Source of the DNA: Kofleriaceae bacterium | GTDB lineage: Bacteria > Myxococcota_A > Polyangia > Haliangiales > Haliangiaceae | Length of the DNA: 64,000 nucleotides | Assembly (NCBI GenBank): GCA_041495365.1 | Contig: JBGQCL010000007.1 | Location: forward strand, 2,547 to 66,546 | Reading direction: 5' to 3' | Shown: piece after piece, positions 16,082 to 55,991 of the stretch | How the letters are laid out: each line of letters opens with the position of its first letter | How positions within the stretch are numbered: the first letter of the stretch is position 1 | Translations under genes and position numbers: made by a program | The notes under the pieces: model-generated | Database searches by the model: none | Seen by the model: the letters and a program-made list of their open reading frames with translations, nothing else | Told to the model about the DNA's origin: nothing

Positions 16082-16097
16082 TGCAAGCACCTGACCA
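16082..16097 (-). promoter_or_regulatory. Sigma-54 type -24/-12 motif P1 (hemG-like gene)
   Basis: Minus strand: TGGTCA-GGTGC-TTGCA, then 13 nt, then ATG (16068). Confidence 0.6.
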
Positions 16098-16219
16098 GCT
16101 GGCCGGTCGCGGCGCGGCCAAGGCTTGGCGGCACCCGCCGCGGAAGATGCGCAGGGCCTGCGCTCCGCACAGCGCGAGGCGCGTGGGCTGCGCGGGCCGG
16201 TCGGCGGCGCAGCGCGGGC

Positions 16220-16336
16220 TCAGTGCATCATCAGGACGACGAGGGACATGATGAACCCGACGGTGATCGCGGTCCACACGATGACGTGCAGGGGGATGGT
16301 CCAGCCCTCGCTCGGGCGCTTGACGTGGGTCGCCAT
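16220..16336 (-). CDS. 38-aa single-TM small protein
   Basis: MATHVKRPSEGWTIPLHVIVWTAITVGFIMSLVVLMMH. Its ATG at 16336 lies 13 nt downstream of a strong -24/-12 motif (P2). Confidence 0.5.
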   Translation of the reverse strand: MATHVKRPSEGWTIPLHVIVWTAITVGFIMSLVVLMMH

Positions 16337-16349
16337 GGCCGGGAATCCC

Positions 16350-16365
16350 AGCAGCCGACGTGCCA
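16350..16365 (-). promoter_or_regulatory. Sigma-54 type -24/-12 motif P2 (small membrane protein)
   Basis: Minus strand: TGGCAC-GTCGG-CTGCT, then 13 nt, then ATG (16336). Confidence 0.65.
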
Positions 16366-16471
16366 GGTCCCGAGGTGGGAGCGAGTCCGCCGCGGACGCA
16401 GCGCGTGCAAGCGCCGCTGCGCCTCCGCGCGAGATCTGCGCGATTCTCCCCCGGCTCCCCGGGGTAGCGGC

Positions 16472-16487
16472 CGGCACGAACCTTGAT
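16472..16487 (+). promoter_or_regulatory. Sigma-54-like motif P3 (hemN), weak -12
   Basis: CGGCAC-GAACC-TTGAT, then 13 nt, then ATG (16501). The -12 GC is GA here, so this is the weakest member. Confidence 0.35.
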
Positions 16488-16500
16488 ATTGCTGGCGGAC

Positions 16501-17904
16501 ATGCCAGACGCAGAAGTCGCCTCCTGTCTCGCCGAGTACGCCAGCCGGGGCCCGCGCTACACCAGCTACCCACCGGCGACCGAGTTCGGCCCGCTGCCGC
16601 GGGATCACGTGGAGCGCGAGCTGACGACGATCGGCGATCGCGGCGAACCGATCTCGCTCTACGCCCACGTGCCGTTCTGCAAGAGCCTGTGCTGGTACTG
16701 CGGCTGTAACGTGATCGCGACCCGCAACGAGGACCGCGGCGTCGCGTACCTCGAACAGCTGATCACCGAGCTGACGATGCTCGCGGGCTACGTGCGCAGC
16801 GCGCCGGTCACCGAGATCGCGATCGGCGGTGGGTCGCCGAACTTCCTGTCGCCGCACTCGCTGCGCACGATGATCGCGGCGATCGATCGCAACTTCGCGG
16901 TCGCGCCCGATGCACGGCGGTCGATCGAGCTCGACCCGCGGACCACGGCCGCGTCGCAGGTCGACGTGCTGGCCGCCGGGGGGTTCCGCTCGCTCAGCAT
17001 GGGCGTGCAGGACTTCTCCGAGGCGGTCCAGGACGCGATCCATCGCCACCAGACCACGCTGCAGACCCGCTGGCTGGTCGACCGCGCGCGGGCCGCCGGG
17101 TTCGACGACGTCAACGTCGACGTCGTGTACGGCCTGCCGCTGCAGACCGAGGCGAGCTTCACCCGGACGCTCGACGCGGTGATCGACCTGGCGGCGGACC
17201 GGATCGCGCTGTTCGGCTACGCCCACCTGCCGAGCAAGCTGCCGCACCAGCGGCTGGTCGAGCGCGCCGGCCGGATGCTCGATCGCCACGAGCGCGCGGC
17301 GCTGCTGCTGCTGGCGATCGAGAAGCTGACCGGCGCCGGCTACCTGCACCTCGGGCTCGACCACTTCGCGCGGCCGGGCTCGCGGCTGGCGCGCGCGGCC
17401 GCCGATCGCCGGATGGTGCGGACGTTCCAGGGCTATGTCGAGCACCGCGCGGACGCGATCCTCGGGGCCGGTGTGTCGGCGATCTCGTCGACGCCGCGCA
17501 TGCACTGGCAGAGCCACAGCGATCTGCCGGCGTGGGAGCACAGCGTCGCCGCCGGGCAGCTGCCGGTCGATCGCGGGTTCGTGCTCGACGGCGACGATCG
17601 GCTGCGCCGCGCGATCATCGGCGAGCTGATGTGCCGCGGCGAGGTCGAGCTCGCGCAGGTCGCGGCCGACCACGGGGCCGACGCCGCGAGCTACTTCGCG
17701 CGCGAGCTCGGGGCGCTCGGCGCGCTCGACGAGCTCGCGAGCTACGACGCGGCGGCCGGCGTGGTCCGGACCACGCCGCTCGGGCGGCTGCTGGTCCGCA
17801 ACATCTGCATGGTGTTCGACCGCTACCACCGCGAGCCGGCCAGCCTGCCCGGCATGCCGGGCGGTGCGCCGAGCGAGGCGCCGCGGTTCTCATCGACGAT
17901 CTGA
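16501..17904 (+). CDS. hemN: Oxygen-independent coproporphyrinogen III oxidase (radical SAM)
   Basis: GPRYTSYPPA and the CKSLCWYCGC radical-SAM cluster motif; full length. The ATG at 16501 is preferred over the TTG at 16483. Confidence 0.9.
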   Translation: MPDAEVASCLAEYASRGPRYTSYPPATEFGPLPRDHVERELTTIGDRGEPISLYAHVPFCKSLCWYCGCNVIATRNEDRGVAYLEQLITELTMLAGYVRSAPVTEIAIGGGSPNFLSPHSLRTMIAAIDRNFAVAPDARRSIELDPRTTAASQVDVLAAGGFRSLSMGVQDFSEAVQDAIHRHQTTLQTRWLVDRARAAGFDDVNVDVVYGLPLQTEASFTRTLDAVIDLAADRIALFGYAHLPSKLPHQRLVERAGRMLDRHERAALLLLAIEKLTGAGYLHLGLDHFARPGSRLARAAADRRMVRTFQGYVEHRADAILGAGVSAISSTPRMHWQSHSDLPAWEHSVAAGQLPVDRGFVLDGDDRLRRAIIGELMCRGEVELAQVAADHGADAASYFARELGALGALDELASYDAAAGVVRTTPLGRLLVRNICMVFDRYHREPASLPGMPGGAPSEAPRFSSTI

Positions 17905-17919
17905 GCCAACGGAGGCACC

Positions 17920-18336
17920 ATGACGACGCCGCTGACCCCCGGCCGCGCGCTCGAAACGCTCGCGGCCCAGCACGCCACCCTGCGCGAGACGATCGACCGC
18001 TGCGAGGAGCTCGCCGACGCGGTCGACGACGGCGCCGGCGCTGCGCCCCAGCTGCTGCGCGAGGTCGCCCGGCTGCGGGCCGCGTTCGACGAGCACAACC
18101 AGTTCGAGGAGCAGCTGCTGCGGCCGCTGCTGCTCGACGTCGACTGGCTCGGCGCGGTGCGGGTTTCTCGCATGGTCGAGGACCACGTCGAGGAGCATCG
18201 CGCGATGCGTCAGGGGCTTGCTGCCACGCCGACCGGCGACCTGCGCGGCGTGCTGGCCAGCCTGCGCGATCACCTCGCGACCGAGGAGCGCTACTTCCTG
18301 TCGCGGAAGGTTCTGCGCGACGACCTCGCGGGCTAG
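17920..18336 (+). CDS. Hemerythrin-like (HHE cation-binding) domain protein
   Basis: H/E-rich four-helix pattern (FDEHNQFEEQLL, VEDHVEEH, LRDHLATEERYF). GGAGG RBS. Lies 15 nt after hemN. Confidence 0.7.
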   Translation: MTTPLTPGRALETLAAQHATLRETIDRCEELADAVDDGAGAAPQLLREVARLRAAFDEHNQFEEQLLRPLLLDVDWLGAVRVSRMVEDHVEEHRAMRQGLAATPTGDLRGVLASLRDHLATEERYFLSRKVLRDDLAG

Positions 18337-18424
18337 CGGGGACCGAGCGAAGCCCGGGGCATCGCGCTCACGCCCGAGGCTCCGGAAGCAGCGCAGCGTG
18401 GGACCCGCGGAACAGGATCTGCGT

Positions 18425-54879: not shown

Positions 54880-54891
54880 GGCCACACAGGG

Positions 54892-54907
54892 AGCAACCCG
54901 CGTTCCA
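54892..54907 (-). promoter_or_regulatory. Sigma-54 type -24/-12 motif P13
   Basis: Minus strand: TGGAAC-GCGGG-TTGCT, then 12 nt, then ATG (54879). Confidence 0.65.
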
Positions 54908-54989
54908 ACCGGCCCGCATCCCCATCGCGATCGGCTTGCGCTGCCGCGTCCGTGGTCCGCATCCGCTGCGCGATCTCCCGTCGCAGCAG

Positions 54990-55005
54990 TGGCACGACAT
55001 CTGCT
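54990..55005 (+). promoter_or_regulatory. Sigma-54 type -24/-12 motif P14 (CBS protein)
   Basis: TGGCAC-GACAT-CTGCT, then 12 nt, then ATG (55018). Confidence 0.65.
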
Positions 55006-55017
55006 CGTTCTTCAGAC

Positions 55018-55425
55018 ATGTTGATGCCACCGATCAGCCGCTACATGACGCGCCAGCCGTGGACCATCGAGCCCAGCGCCACGCTGACCACCGCCCACCA
55101 GCTCATGCGCAGCCATGCGATCCGCCACCTCCCGGTGATCGACGCCGGCAAGCTCGTCGGCATCGTCAGCGAGCGCGACCTCCACCTGATCGAGACCTTG
55201 CCGGACGCCGATCCCGACGAGGTCACCGTGGACGACGCGATGACCGAGGCGGTCTACGTCGCCGCACCGACCGACGAGGTGTCCGAGGTCGTCGACCGGA
55301 TGGCCGCCGGCAAGCTCGGCTCGGCGGTCGTGATGCGAGGTCACAGCGTCGAGGGCATCTTCACCTCGATCGACGCCCTCCAGGTCCTGTCTCACGTGCT
55401 GCGCCGCACCGTCGACCCGCGCTGA
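55018..55425 (+). CDS. CBS domain pair protein
   Basis: YMTRQPWTIEPSATL..., HLPVIDAGKLVGIVSERDL, AVVMRGHSVEGIFTSIDAL. Confidence 0.85.
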   Translation: MLMPPISRYMTRQPWTIEPSATLTTAHQLMRSHAIRHLPVIDAGKLVGIVSERDLHLIETLPDADPDEVTVDDAMTEAVYVAAPTDEVSEVVDRMAAGKLGSAVVMRGHSVEGIFTSIDALQVLSHVLRRTVDPR

Positions 55426-55456
55426 CCGCGCCCATCGCCGGCGCGGCTGGCGGCGC

Positions 55457-55942
55457 CTACGACTTCTTGAACTCGCCGCCCTTGATGGCGATCGTCTTGG
55501 CCTGCGCGGTGGGCTGCTTCGGCACCACGACCGTCAGCACGCCGTCCTTGAGCTCGGCGTGGACGTGCTCGGCGTCGAACCCCTCGGGCAGCGTGAACGT
55601 GCGCAGGAAGCTGCCGAACGAGCGCTCGTACGCATAGTACGTGTCGTCCTTGTCCTCGCGCTCCGCCTCGCGCTTGCCGCTGATCGTCAGCCGATCGCCG
55701 GCCAGCTTGACCTCGACGTCCTGCTCCTTCATCCCCGGCAGGTCCGCCTTGAACAGGAAGCTGTCCTTGTTCTCCTTGACCTCGAACGCCGGCGAGAACA
55801 TCGCCTCGACGGGCGGCTGCCCGAACCACGACGGCGTCATCTCACGGAACGGATCCCAGCGCAGCAGCCAGCGGAACGGGTCGTTCTCCGCCTTCATCGA
55901 CGCGACCGGATGTTCAGGAGTTACTCGACGGATCAGTGACAT
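55457..55942 (-). CDS. Hsp20/alpha-crystallin small heat-shock protein
   Basis: Alpha-crystallin domain (FEVKENKDSFLFKADLPGMKEQDVEVKL...FTLPEGFDAEHVHAELKDGVLTVVVPK). GAAGGAGG RBS. Confidence 0.92.
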   Translation of the reverse strand: MSLIRRVTPEHPVASMKAENDPFRWLLRWDPFREMTPSWFGQPPVEAMFSPAFEVKENKDSFLFKADLPGMKEQDVEVKLAGDRLTISGKREAEREDKDDTYYAYERSFGSFLRTFTLPEGFDAEHVHAELKDGVLTVVVPKQPTAQAKTIAIKGGEFKKS

Positions 55943-55970
55943 GGCAGTCCTCCTTCATGGGACTGCCATG
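55940..55970 (-). promoter_or_regulatory. Leader hairpin covering part of the SD and the AUG of hsp20
   Basis: mRNA sense: C-AUGGCAGUCC-CAUGAAGGA-GGACUGCCAU-G. 10-11 bp perfect arms. The 3' arm contains the last GG of the SD and the AU(G) of the start codon. Confidence 0.4.
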
Positions 55971-55975
55971 CAGGC

Positions 55976-55991
55976 AGCAAACACCGTTCCA
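55976..55991 (-). promoter_or_regulatory. Sigma-54 type -24/-12 motif P15 (hsp20)
   Basis: Minus strand: TGGAAC-GGTGT-TTGCT, then 33 nt (with SD), then ATG (55942). Confidence 0.65.

Follow-up and report, generated by a model that had tools for sequence, protein, structure and literature searches.

A predicted NmpR-type sigma-54 regulon with promoters 12-13 nucleotides from the start codon in a Kofleriaceae bacterium

In Myxococcus xanthus, the NmpRSTU system comprises the NtrC-like activator NmpR, the protoglobin kinase NmpU, which is a homologue of AfGcHK from Anaeromyxobacter, and the hybrid kinase NmpS (Bretl et al. 2018, PMC6211767; McAllister et al. 2025, PMC11841059). The binding site of NmpR is GCGCA-N5-TGCGC, most often present twice with 14-15 bp in between, and the sigma-54 promoters that it activates belong to a CBS gene, a usp gene, a P-type ATPase gene with the cbb3 oxidase, and the nmp genes (PMC11841059). 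We investigated a stretch of 64,000 nucleotides (nt) from a Kofleriaceae bacterium (assembly GCA_041495365.1, contig JBGQCL010000007.1, positions 2,547 to 66,546; G+C content 72%), hereafter called the window, in which genes of this kind stand together with 16 sigma-54 (-24/-12) promoter motifs, P1 to P16. An original prediction, made from the sequence of the window, had listed P1 to P15 and described them as a putative leaderless sigma-54 regulon. Our analysis suggests that the window probably carries an NmpR-type sigma-54 low-oxygen regulon whose mRNAs are leaderless or nearly so.

The three regulator genes lie consecutively on the minus strand. The nmpR-type gene (49749-51161) encodes an enhancer-binding protein with receiver, sigma-54 AAA+ (Sigma54_activat) and HTH_8 domains; the AAA+ domain matched PF00158 at 246 bits, and its GAFTGA-type loop reads GSFTGA. 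This gene had been taken for a sigma-54 enhancer-binding protein, and both its sigma-54 interaction domain and the activator sites upstream of the promoters agree with that assignment. The nmpU-type gene (48589-49752) encodes a globin-coupled histidine kinase with Protoglobin, HisKA and HATPase domains, and its globin domain matched the AfGcHK structure 5OHE (E = 1.5e-27). The nmpS-type gene (47406-48521) encodes a hybrid kinase with receiver, HisKA and HATPase domains. In each of the seven complete nmpR loci from related contigs (L081-L083 and L164-L167), the activator gene is followed by a Protoglobin kinase gene. Relatives of the activator formed more than 120 protein clusters at 81-95% identity, and the named ones came mostly from Kofleriaceae. 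Among the matches listed, contig scans with the activator returned mostly paralogues at 42-63% identity, with orthologues as fragments only.

The window system resembles M. xanthus NmpRSTU in its NtrC-like activator, protoglobin histidine kinase, receiver-HisKA-CA hybrid kinase, sigma-54 promoters, autoregulation and paired enhancer consensus. The known NmpR targets have counterparts here in a CBS gene (P14), usp genes (P6 and P12), a cbb3 oxidase with a P-type ATPase (P4; ATPase at 24636-27248) and the nmp genes (P10). Unlike in M. xanthus, the window promoters lie 12-13 nt from start codons that lack a Shine-Dalgarno sequence, nmpR, nmpU and nmpS are consecutive on one strand, and the nearest enhancers are 18 nt from the -24 box. 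The predicted regulon is also larger, adding hemN, HemG-like, hemerythrin, DksA-like and acyl-CoA synthetase genes as well as APH and APS kinases, multihaem cytochromes and hsp20. By these sequence features, the predicted window regulon is a low-oxygen regulon of the known NmpRSTU type.

All 15 motifs first reported were found at exactly the claimed coordinates, strands and sequences. GG was present at 15 of 15 and GC at 14 of 15, P3 having GA; P16 also has GA, so that GG and GC are both kept in 14 of the 16 promoters. As claimed, an ATG follows 14 of the 15 motifs at 12, 13 or 15 nt (six, seven and one sites), and P15 has its ATG at 33 nt. Counted between the 16-mer and the ATG, the spacer is 12 nt at P6 and P10-P14, 13 nt at P1-P5, P8 and P9, and 15 nt at P7. 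With P16 included, the ATG stands at 12-15 nt in 15 of 16 promoters and at 12-13 nt in 14 of 16. P15, the hsp20 promoter, is the only one of the 16 with a leadered gene.

We scanned both strands of the window with an approximate sigma-54 matrix, modelled on the published TGGCACG-N4-TTGCW consensus, so that the scores are rough in absolute terms; the chance level was the mean over 40 dinucleotide shuffles. The nine top scores belonged to P15, P13, P14, P2, P6, P10, P8, P1 and P11, and eight of these nine hits had an ATG 12-13 nt downstream. Seven hits reached at least 14 bits, compared with 0.85 in shuffles. At a threshold of at least 10 bits, 12 of 22 hits had an ATG at offsets 11-14, all of them at 12 or 13, compared with 0.4 in shuffles. 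GTG or TTG gave no peak at any offset past the matrix hits in the window scan. The seven nmpR loci, taken alone, gave 23 of 52 hits of at least 10 bits with an ATG at offset 12 or 13. The motif-to-ATG spacing was thus sharply enriched at 12-13 nt over shuffled controls in the window, and the peak was repeated in the other loci. P3, P5, P7, P9 and P12 were weak members, with scores of their own of 10 bits or less; they are backed by an adjoining activator site and the equal spacing, and P3 is also conserved in two other genomes.

Bare GG-N10-GC is common in GC-rich DNA, five of the motifs are weak, and TGGAAC resembles the -35 boxes of extracytoplasmic function (ECF) sigma factors. The matches could on these grounds be chance at this G+C content, or sites of another protein or of an ECF-type sigma factor. 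We give this explanation almost no credence, given the shuffle statistics and the agreement with the full TGGCAC-N5-TTGCW consensus, beyond GG and GC. Moreover, an autoregulated sigma-54 activator is encoded in the locus and its type of site flanks the motifs in helical phase, and the motifs are conserved in all ten other contigs. An ECF-type -35 box was rejected on spacing, as TGGAAC in that role would start transcription inside the gene.

The comparison set consisted of nine Kofleriaceae-type contigs and one Polyangiales contig (L049), and 41 promoters were curated from eleven sequences including the window. GCGCA-N5-TGCGC sites with at most two mismatches were found upstream of every listed window promoter, the P11 site abutting its -24 box; counts were 16 of 16 window promoters and 33 of the 41 curated sites. 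Enhancer pairs (gap 14-16 bp, at most three mismatches in total) numbered six in the window compared with 0.6 in shuffles. All six lay upstream of promoters, namely P1, P4, P5, P13/P14 and P15, plus a pair at 27384-27428 that led to P16. Across the curated promoters, the distances from enhancer to -24 box clustered at 18-19, 28-30, 38-41, 48-51, 58-61, 67-70 and 78-81 nt, with 0.13 expected per distance; the clusters are about one helical turn (~10 bp) apart. Because the enhancers are phased and their consensus was established experimentally in a different genus, P3, P5, P7, P9 and P12 are, despite their weak motifs, very likely real activator-dependent promoters. An initial enhancer candidate, TTGCRC-N8-GYGCAA, was dropped, as the published NmpR consensus fits better. 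Perfect GCGCA-N5-TGCGC sites also occur where no sigma-54 promoter could be recognised next to them, at 39690-39704 in the hemerythrin gene, at 52545-52559 in the APH-like gene, and at 60562-60576 upstream of a gene starting at 60605.

We then compared orthologous promoters in the related contigs, in which the nmpR loci were located by protein matches (L081-L083, L164-L167) and the second region by hemN homologues (L172, L173). The 12-13 nt layout was found in all ten contigs, and the curated spacers measured 11 nt at one site, 12 nt at 22, 13 nt at 15, 14 nt at two and 15 nt at one. In orthologous promoters, the motif and the spacer length were conserved and the spacer sequence usually was not. 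The nmpR promoter reads TGGCAC-N5-xxGCT in eight genomes, with a spacer of 11-14 nt (mostly 12), differing spacer sequences and the ATG kept. The conservation that the original prediction had named as a check was found for the nmpR, HemG-like, 38-amino-acid, hemN, ccoNO, usp, dksA-like, P13 and APH-like genes. In L172 and L173, P1 keeps its odd TGGTCA and 13-nt spacer, P3 its TTGAT variant with a 12-nt spacer, and P4 an identical motif and spacer layout; P2 has a spacer of 13 nt in L172 and 16 nt in L173. The P6 orthologue in L081 reads TGGCATGCTGGTTGCG followed by 13 nt. P8 orthologues have spacers of 13 nt (L081) and 14 nt (L164), the P11 orthologue in L167 has 12 nt, and P13 orthologues in L081, L082, L083, L164 and L166 have 12-13 nt. 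For the CBS gene (P14), the clear orthologue in L081 (76% identity) keeps the motif but not the spacing, which is 17 nt there. The CBS genes of L164 and L049 are more distantly related (35% identity) and have a 12-nt spacer; in L049 the motif is a perfect TGGCACGCGCCTTGCT. Other strong hits in the seven nmpR loci, at dksA-like, usp, CBS, P13-type and APH-like genes, lie 12-14 nt before an ATG that is the called start or is in frame with it.

Gene callers often extended starts upstream over the sigma-54 promoter (L081 at 9171 and 12823, L164 at 13488, L165 at 10001, L167 at 3424), and hemN homologues of 473-571 amino acids showed the same over-extension, presumably because the true ATG lacks a Shine-Dalgarno sequence. 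Public annotations of these regulon members therefore probably carry wrong N-termini. Differences between gene callers at several starts, together with low-complexity and poorly conserved N-termini such as that of the APH-like protein, could also mean that the promoters are real and translation starts at an internal codon, the apparent first codons being a short leader. We judge this to be very unlikely. The gene-caller differences are upstream extensions over the promoter and never downstream starts, and the first-codon ATG of nmpR is kept in eight genomes, with neither an alternative start nor an internal Shine-Dalgarno sequence. This ATG stands 5-6 codons before the receiver domain, in a conserved N-terminus M-x-R-x-G-R-I-L-V-V-D-D-E. 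In addition, the ATG is immediately followed by the signal peptide and lipobox in the products of P9 and P16, and only a few residues separate it from the start of the domain in the Usp, CBS, flavodoxin and ccoN proteins. Sequence support for the ATG as the N-terminus is strong for nmpR, the P1-P4 genes and the lipoprotein genes.

To place the start of transcription, we used the canonical sigma-54 start, spacer position 11, which follows from the -24/-12 convention and lies 19 bp from the motif centre, a rule that has been used for E. coli (PMC4591121). Spacer position 11 was a purine at 32 of the 41 curated sites. The base before the ATG was C at 34 of the 41 and never A, compared with C at 13 of 28 other ATG gene starts in a hand count, and the start codon was ATG at all 41. 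RNA polymerase prefers a pyrimidine at -1 and a purine at +1; with C before the ATG, a start exactly at the A is therefore plausible. A leader of at most 5 nt counts as leaderless in operational terms (quoted in PMC12754779), and the 0-3 nt predicted from the promoter layout would fall within this definition whichever start is used. The evidence is of the type used for the predicted leaderless genes of Actinobacteria and Deinococcus-Thermus, moved to a -24/-12 promoter.

Two forms of this prediction can be distinguished. In the first, genuine NmpR/sigma-54 promoters use the canonical start and give leaders of 2-3 nt, and the AUG is recognised near the 5' end. This form is possible, though we hold it only tentatively: the frequent purine at position 11, the point implied by the -24/-12 naming and the 19-bp rule, favours it, but the strongest positional signal is tied to the ATG (the C at -1), which suggests a start at the A, and the ATG context is kept while the spacer ranges from 11 to 15 nt. 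In the second form, transcription starts exactly at the A at most promoters, and a whole activator-gated hypoxia regulon is truly leaderless, a state selected because leaderless translation remains efficient or gains an advantage as oxygen and energy become scarce. We regard this stronger form as rather unlikely; if true, an alternative sigma factor would be linked to an alternative way of initiating translation, similar to a proposal for dormant mycobacteria.

Several points weigh against reading the regulon as leaderless or nearly so. The start points are predictions from the promoter geometry, and the C at -1 and the purine at spacer position 11 are two signals for different start points, the canonical one giving a leader of 2-3 nt and not of zero. 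The matrix behind the scores is approximate, P3 and P16 have GA in place of the near-invariant GC at -12, and only 18-30 nt separate some enhancers from the -24 box, an unusually short distance for an activator that depends on looping. No rpoN gene was found within the window. Finally, GGAG stands inside the spacers of P6, P8 and P11, where it could be used as a Shine-Dalgarno sequence on a read-through transcript. The original claim of a putative leaderless regulon is upheld for the regulon, of the known NmpRSTU type that had gone unrecognised, while its leaderless character is our reading of the promoter geometry. The accompanying claim that Shine-Dalgarno sequences are absent held for most spacers; for the three with GGAG it is valid only if transcription starts at the predicted point. 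With spacers of 11-15 nt, which lie upstream of or at that point, the GGAG would therefore be untranscribed and would provide no usable Shine-Dalgarno sequence.

Those three GGAG motifs also bear on another explanation, in which the sigma-54 sites are roadblocks, or poised closed complexes, over genes expressed from upstream sigma-70 promoters with leadered mRNAs. Sigma-54 holoenzyme makes stable closed complexes. Many non-productive sigma-54 sites exist in E. coli (PMC4591121), and a TAGACT 7 nt before the nmpR ATG is a possible sigma-70 -10 box. However, two divergent promoters and their enhancers take up the whole of the short intergenic regions (P6/P7, 111 nt; P11/P12, 88 nt), most spacers have no Shine-Dalgarno sequence, so that a read-through mRNA would be poorly translated, and the phased enhancers favour activation, as for the M. 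xanthus homologue. Because the intergenic regions are too short and lack Shine-Dalgarno sequences, we consider a roadblock role improbable to a high degree.

The TAGACT (51169-51174, minus strand) opens the nmpR spacer, ends 7 nt before the ATG at 51161 and overlaps the -12 region of the sigma-54 motif. It has the classic geometry of a sigma-70-type leaderless promoter and could supply basal expression of the regulator; its final T is kept in the window and L167 only. The idea that the motifs are sigma-70 leaderless promoters in disguise, with TANNNT 6-8 nt before the ATG, was rejected, since only this TAGACT fits and it is not conserved. Possible sigma-70-type leaderless starts were seen elsewhere at the fumC ATG 9746 (TATGAG, 6 nt), the open reading frame 58661-58966 (TATAGT, 8 nt), the nmpS ATG 48521 on the minus strand (TACTAT, 11 nt) and the GTG 34861 of a kinase gene (TAGGAT, 5 nt). 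This suggests leaderless expression beyond the sigma-54 regulon. Leaderless sigma-A transcripts have been reported for myxobacterial pexR, and together with these candidates they make leaderless translation in the myxobacterial group plausible.

In the mechanism that we propose, drawing on work in M. xanthus and Anaeromyxobacter, the globin-coupled kinase (48589-49752) would sense O2, and the hybrid kinase (47406-48521) would relay the signal and control phosphorylation of the NtrC-like activator (49749-51161). The activator, bound as dimers to GCGCA-N5-TGCGC sites on one face of the helix 18-81 nt upstream, would remodel sigma-54 RNA polymerase, and the first transcribed base would be the A of the AUG or one lying 1-3 nt upstream. 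The resulting mRNAs would have no Shine-Dalgarno sequence, and the ribosome would recognise their 5'-terminal AUG by the leaderless route. The predicted targets are the cbb3 cluster, O2-independent haem synthesis (hemN and the HemG-like gene), hemerythrin, Usp, CBS, DksA-like, acyl-CoA synthetase and multihaem cytochrome genes and the nmp operon itself; hsp20 would use the same promoter type with a leader that has a Shine-Dalgarno sequence.

The layout has limits in related genomes. The spacer is 24 nt long and contains GAGGAGG at a usp orthologue in L165, and it is 23 nt long with GGAGG at one gene in L166. In L001 (Polyangiaceae), an activator-like gene (63% identity) starts with GTG; a sigma-54-like motif precedes it, with a leader of some 40 nt that contains GAGGAG. 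In L171, an Anaeromyxobacter-like, frameshift-ridden long-read assembly reached through AfGcHK, the dksA-like gene has the 12-nt layout and the hemerythrin gene a long leader. In M. xanthus, the pilR promoter has a long leader, and the published primers for mxan_4236 show AGGAG 7 nt before the ATG, with the sigma-54 site further upstream. We had considered whether mxan_4236 shares the 12-nt geometry, as its reverse primer reads TGCCAGGAGTACCGCC-ATG; this was rejected, as the mutagenesis primers put the site upstream and AGGAG is a normal Shine-Dalgarno sequence. These findings indicate that the 12-13 nt layout, although strongly enriched among Kofleriaceae-type genomes, is not universal and has switched back and forth in evolution.

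Leaderless mRNAs have, to our knowledge, been tied so far to sigma-70-type -10 boxes, and sigma-54 promoters are generally pictured with sizeable leaders. In leaderless genes of Actinobacteria and Deinococcus-Thermus, the -10 box is fixed 6-8 nt before the ATG (for example PMC12340547, and Cortes 2013 as cited in PMC5243855). The window genes share with these a fixed distance from promoter to ATG, the missing Shine-Dalgarno sequence, the preference for ATG and the frequent mis-annotation of starts. Those promoters, however, belong to the sigma-70 family and are mostly constitutive, whereas the -24/-12 element is silent without its ATP-dependent activator, so that a whole inducible regulon would be leaderless. 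The DosR (DevR) regulon of M. tuberculosis is likewise induced by hypoxia and rich in Usp, alpha-crystallin/Hsp20 and CBS proteins, a parallel noted in PMC11841059, and its host uses leaderless mRNAs widely; DosR, by contrast, is a LuxR-type regulator acting with sigma-70-type polymerase and is unrelated in sequence and promoter type. The proteobacterial FixLJ-FixK and FNR systems have the same core targets, ccoNOQP, ccoGHIS and hemN, switched on at low O2 through a haem- or Fe-S-based sensor, but FixK and FNR are CRP/FNR-type activators at sigma-70 promoters with ordinary leaders.

A full-text literature search found no paper linking leaderless mRNAs to sigma-54 promoters, the two topics being mentioned only separately, and the spacing between promoter and ATG is not discussed in the NmpR papers. 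Each element is known by itself, be it the regulon type, the sigma-54 promoter or the leaderless mRNA, but in the literature searched we saw no description of the three combined systematically. The new element would be the geometry, with a predicted transcription start 0-3 nt from the AUG. If confirmed, it would mean that the activator-dependent sigma-54 machinery can yield transcripts beginning at AUG and that entire stress regulons can be built with AUG-abutting promoters. The design would then also be evolvable, since a 12-13 nt spacer at one gene can be replaced by a Shine-Dalgarno leader at its orthologue. The rule of a sigma-54 motif, 12-13 nt and an ATG would correct start codons that present gene finders probably misplace in these genomes, and it would predict transcription starts and NmpR regulons in uncultured myxobacteria from sequence alone. 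The NmpRSTU regulon would extend to a further family of myxobacteria, where its targets are far more numerous, and, next to mycobacteria, a second system would become available in which to study whether leaderless translation is an adaptation to hypoxia.

Gene identities were assigned with Pfam and NCBIfam, and the targets named in the original prediction were mostly confirmed. P1 (16082-16097, minus strand; TGGTCAGGTGCTTGCA) lies 13 nt before the ATG 16068 of the flavodoxin gene 15499-16068, which had been called hemG-like; the product matched Flavodoxin_5, with a HemG-like score below the NCBIfam cut-off. Its enhancer pair (16149-16193) consists of GCGCAGGGCCTGCGC and GCGCGTGGGCTGCGC with a gap of 15 bp, 51 and 81 nt from the -24 box. 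P2 (16350-16365, minus strand; TGGCACGTCGGCTGCT) lies 13 nt before the ATG 16336 of a gene for a 38-amino-acid membrane protein (16220-16336), and the divergent P3 (16472-16487, plus strand; CGGCACGAACCTTGAT, with GA at -12) lies 13 nt before the ATG 16501 of hemN (16501-17904), which scored above the NCBIfam equivalog cut-off. The two have one NmpR-type site in common (16427-16441; GCGCGAGATCTGCGC), 61 nt from P2 and 30 nt from P3. The hemN operon continues with a hemerythrin gene (17920-18336) that has its own Shine-Dalgarno sequence.

P4 (18535-18550, plus strand; AGGCACGGCAGTTGCG) lies 13 nt before the ATG 18564 of a fused ccoNO gene (18564-20756; above the NCBIfam cut-off), and its enhancer pair (18461-18505; GCGCAGGTGGTGCGC and ACGCAAACGCTGCGC, gap 15 bp) is 59 and 29 nt from the -24 box. 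The cbb3 oxidase cluster headed by ccoNO continues with ccoP (21007-21672), a FixG-like gene (21927-23363), a DsbD_2 protein gene (23941-24639) and the P-type ATPase gene. A small gene between ccoNO and ccoP contains three tandem copies of the 15-bp unit gccctgccgtttgac (~20960-21006). P16 (27457-27472, plus strand; TGGCACAGCTCGTGAG, with GA at -12), which was absent from the earlier list and was found through its enhancer pair (GCGCAACGACTGCGC and CCGCAGGCGATGCGC, gap 15 bp, 28 and 58 nt upstream), lies 13 nt before the ATG 27486 of a multihaem cytochrome c lipoprotein gene, the first in a cluster of cytochrome genes. The GA variant at -12 recurs at the usual 12-13 nt from the ATG, as CTCGTGAG at P16, CTTGAT at P3 and CTCGTGAA in L171 (near 15740, minus strand); it looks functional, and not like a decayed site, because the hemN version is conserved in three genomes.

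P5 (33910-33925, plus strand; CGGCCCGACGTTTGCG) is a weak motif 13 nt before the ATG 33938 of a gene for a 146-amino-acid protein (33938-34378), with a perfect enhancer site 49 nt upstream and an enhancer pair at 33815-33860 (CCGCAGTGCATGCAC and GCGCACCGGATGCGC, gap 16 bp). Two hemerythrins had been claimed as targets. The P5 product, which gave no family match in Pfam or NCBIfam, is no demonstrable hemerythrin; one hemerythrin gene (39462-39911) does stand at P7, and the second is the one in the hemN operon. P7 (39431-39446, plus strand; TGGACACCGGCTTGCA) lies 15 nt before the ATG 39462, and the divergent P6 (39363-39378, minus strand; TGGCATGTCGGTTGCG) lies 12 nt before the ATG 39350 of a usp gene (38772-39350). 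Between them is an NmpR-type site with two mismatches (39398-39412), 19 and 18 nt from the -24 boxes. P8 (40929-40944, minus strand; TGGAACATCCGATGCA) lies 13 nt before the ATG 40915 of a DksA/TraR-type zinc-finger gene (40538-40915), which is followed downstream by an AAA_28 gene (39908-40534). P9 (41092-41107, plus strand; CGGCACGCCCCGTGCT) lies 13 nt before the ATG 41121, where a lipoprotein gene (41121-41771) begins; a GNAT/ADP-forming acyl-CoA synthetase gene (41780-44452) comes next. The enhancer pair of P8 and P9 (40996-41040) is symmetric, 51 and 81 nt from each.

P10 (51174-51189, minus strand; TGGCACGATCATCGCT) lies 12 nt before the ATG 51161 of nmpR, which points to autoregulation; one or more NmpR-type sites lie upstream (51248-51271), and a site at about 58-60 nt recurs in orthologous promoters. 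P11 (53055-53070, minus strand; CGGCACGGTCGATGCA) lies 12 nt before the ATG 53042 of an APH-like kinase gene (51870-53042), with an APS kinase gene (51316-51873) downstream. The N-terminus of the APH-like protein (52950-53042, minus strand) is a low-complexity SPPG repeat in four copies, right after the predicted leaderless start, and the L167 orthologue aligns from residue 19 only, so that this N-terminus is variable. P12 (53103-53118, plus strand; TGGCGCCGGGCATGCA), a weak motif overlapping a degenerate enhancer-like site, lies 12 nt before the ATG 53131 of the first of two usp genes (53131-53568 and 53565-53993); the window encodes four Usp proteins. A perfect NmpR-type site, GCGCAAGCCGTGCGC, lies between P11 and P12 (53070-53084).

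P13 (54892-54907, minus strand; TGGAACGCGGGTTGCT) lies 12 nt before the ATG 54879 of the gene 54007-54879, whose product of 290 amino acids, secreted or in the membrane, gave no family match. P14 (54990-55005, plus strand; TGGCACGACATCTGCT) lies 12 nt before the ATG 55018 of a CBS-pair gene (55018-55425), and P13 and P14 have an enhancer pair in common (54927-54971). P15 (55976-55991, minus strand; TGGAACGGTGTTTGCT), with an enhancer pair at 56020-56065, lies 33 nt before the ATG 55942 of hsp20 (55457-55942), and a GGAGG Shine-Dalgarno sequence stands in between.

Apart from the regulon, genes at 44459-47354 and 59380-63486 showed a lower third-position G+C (0.71-0.86, compared with about 0.95 elsewhere), and an AT-rich stretch at about 46214-46290 stands before an HTH_3/Peptidase_M78 (IrrE-like) gene (45029-46213). 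These two regions, 44459-47354 and 59380-63486, may be horizontally acquired DNA.

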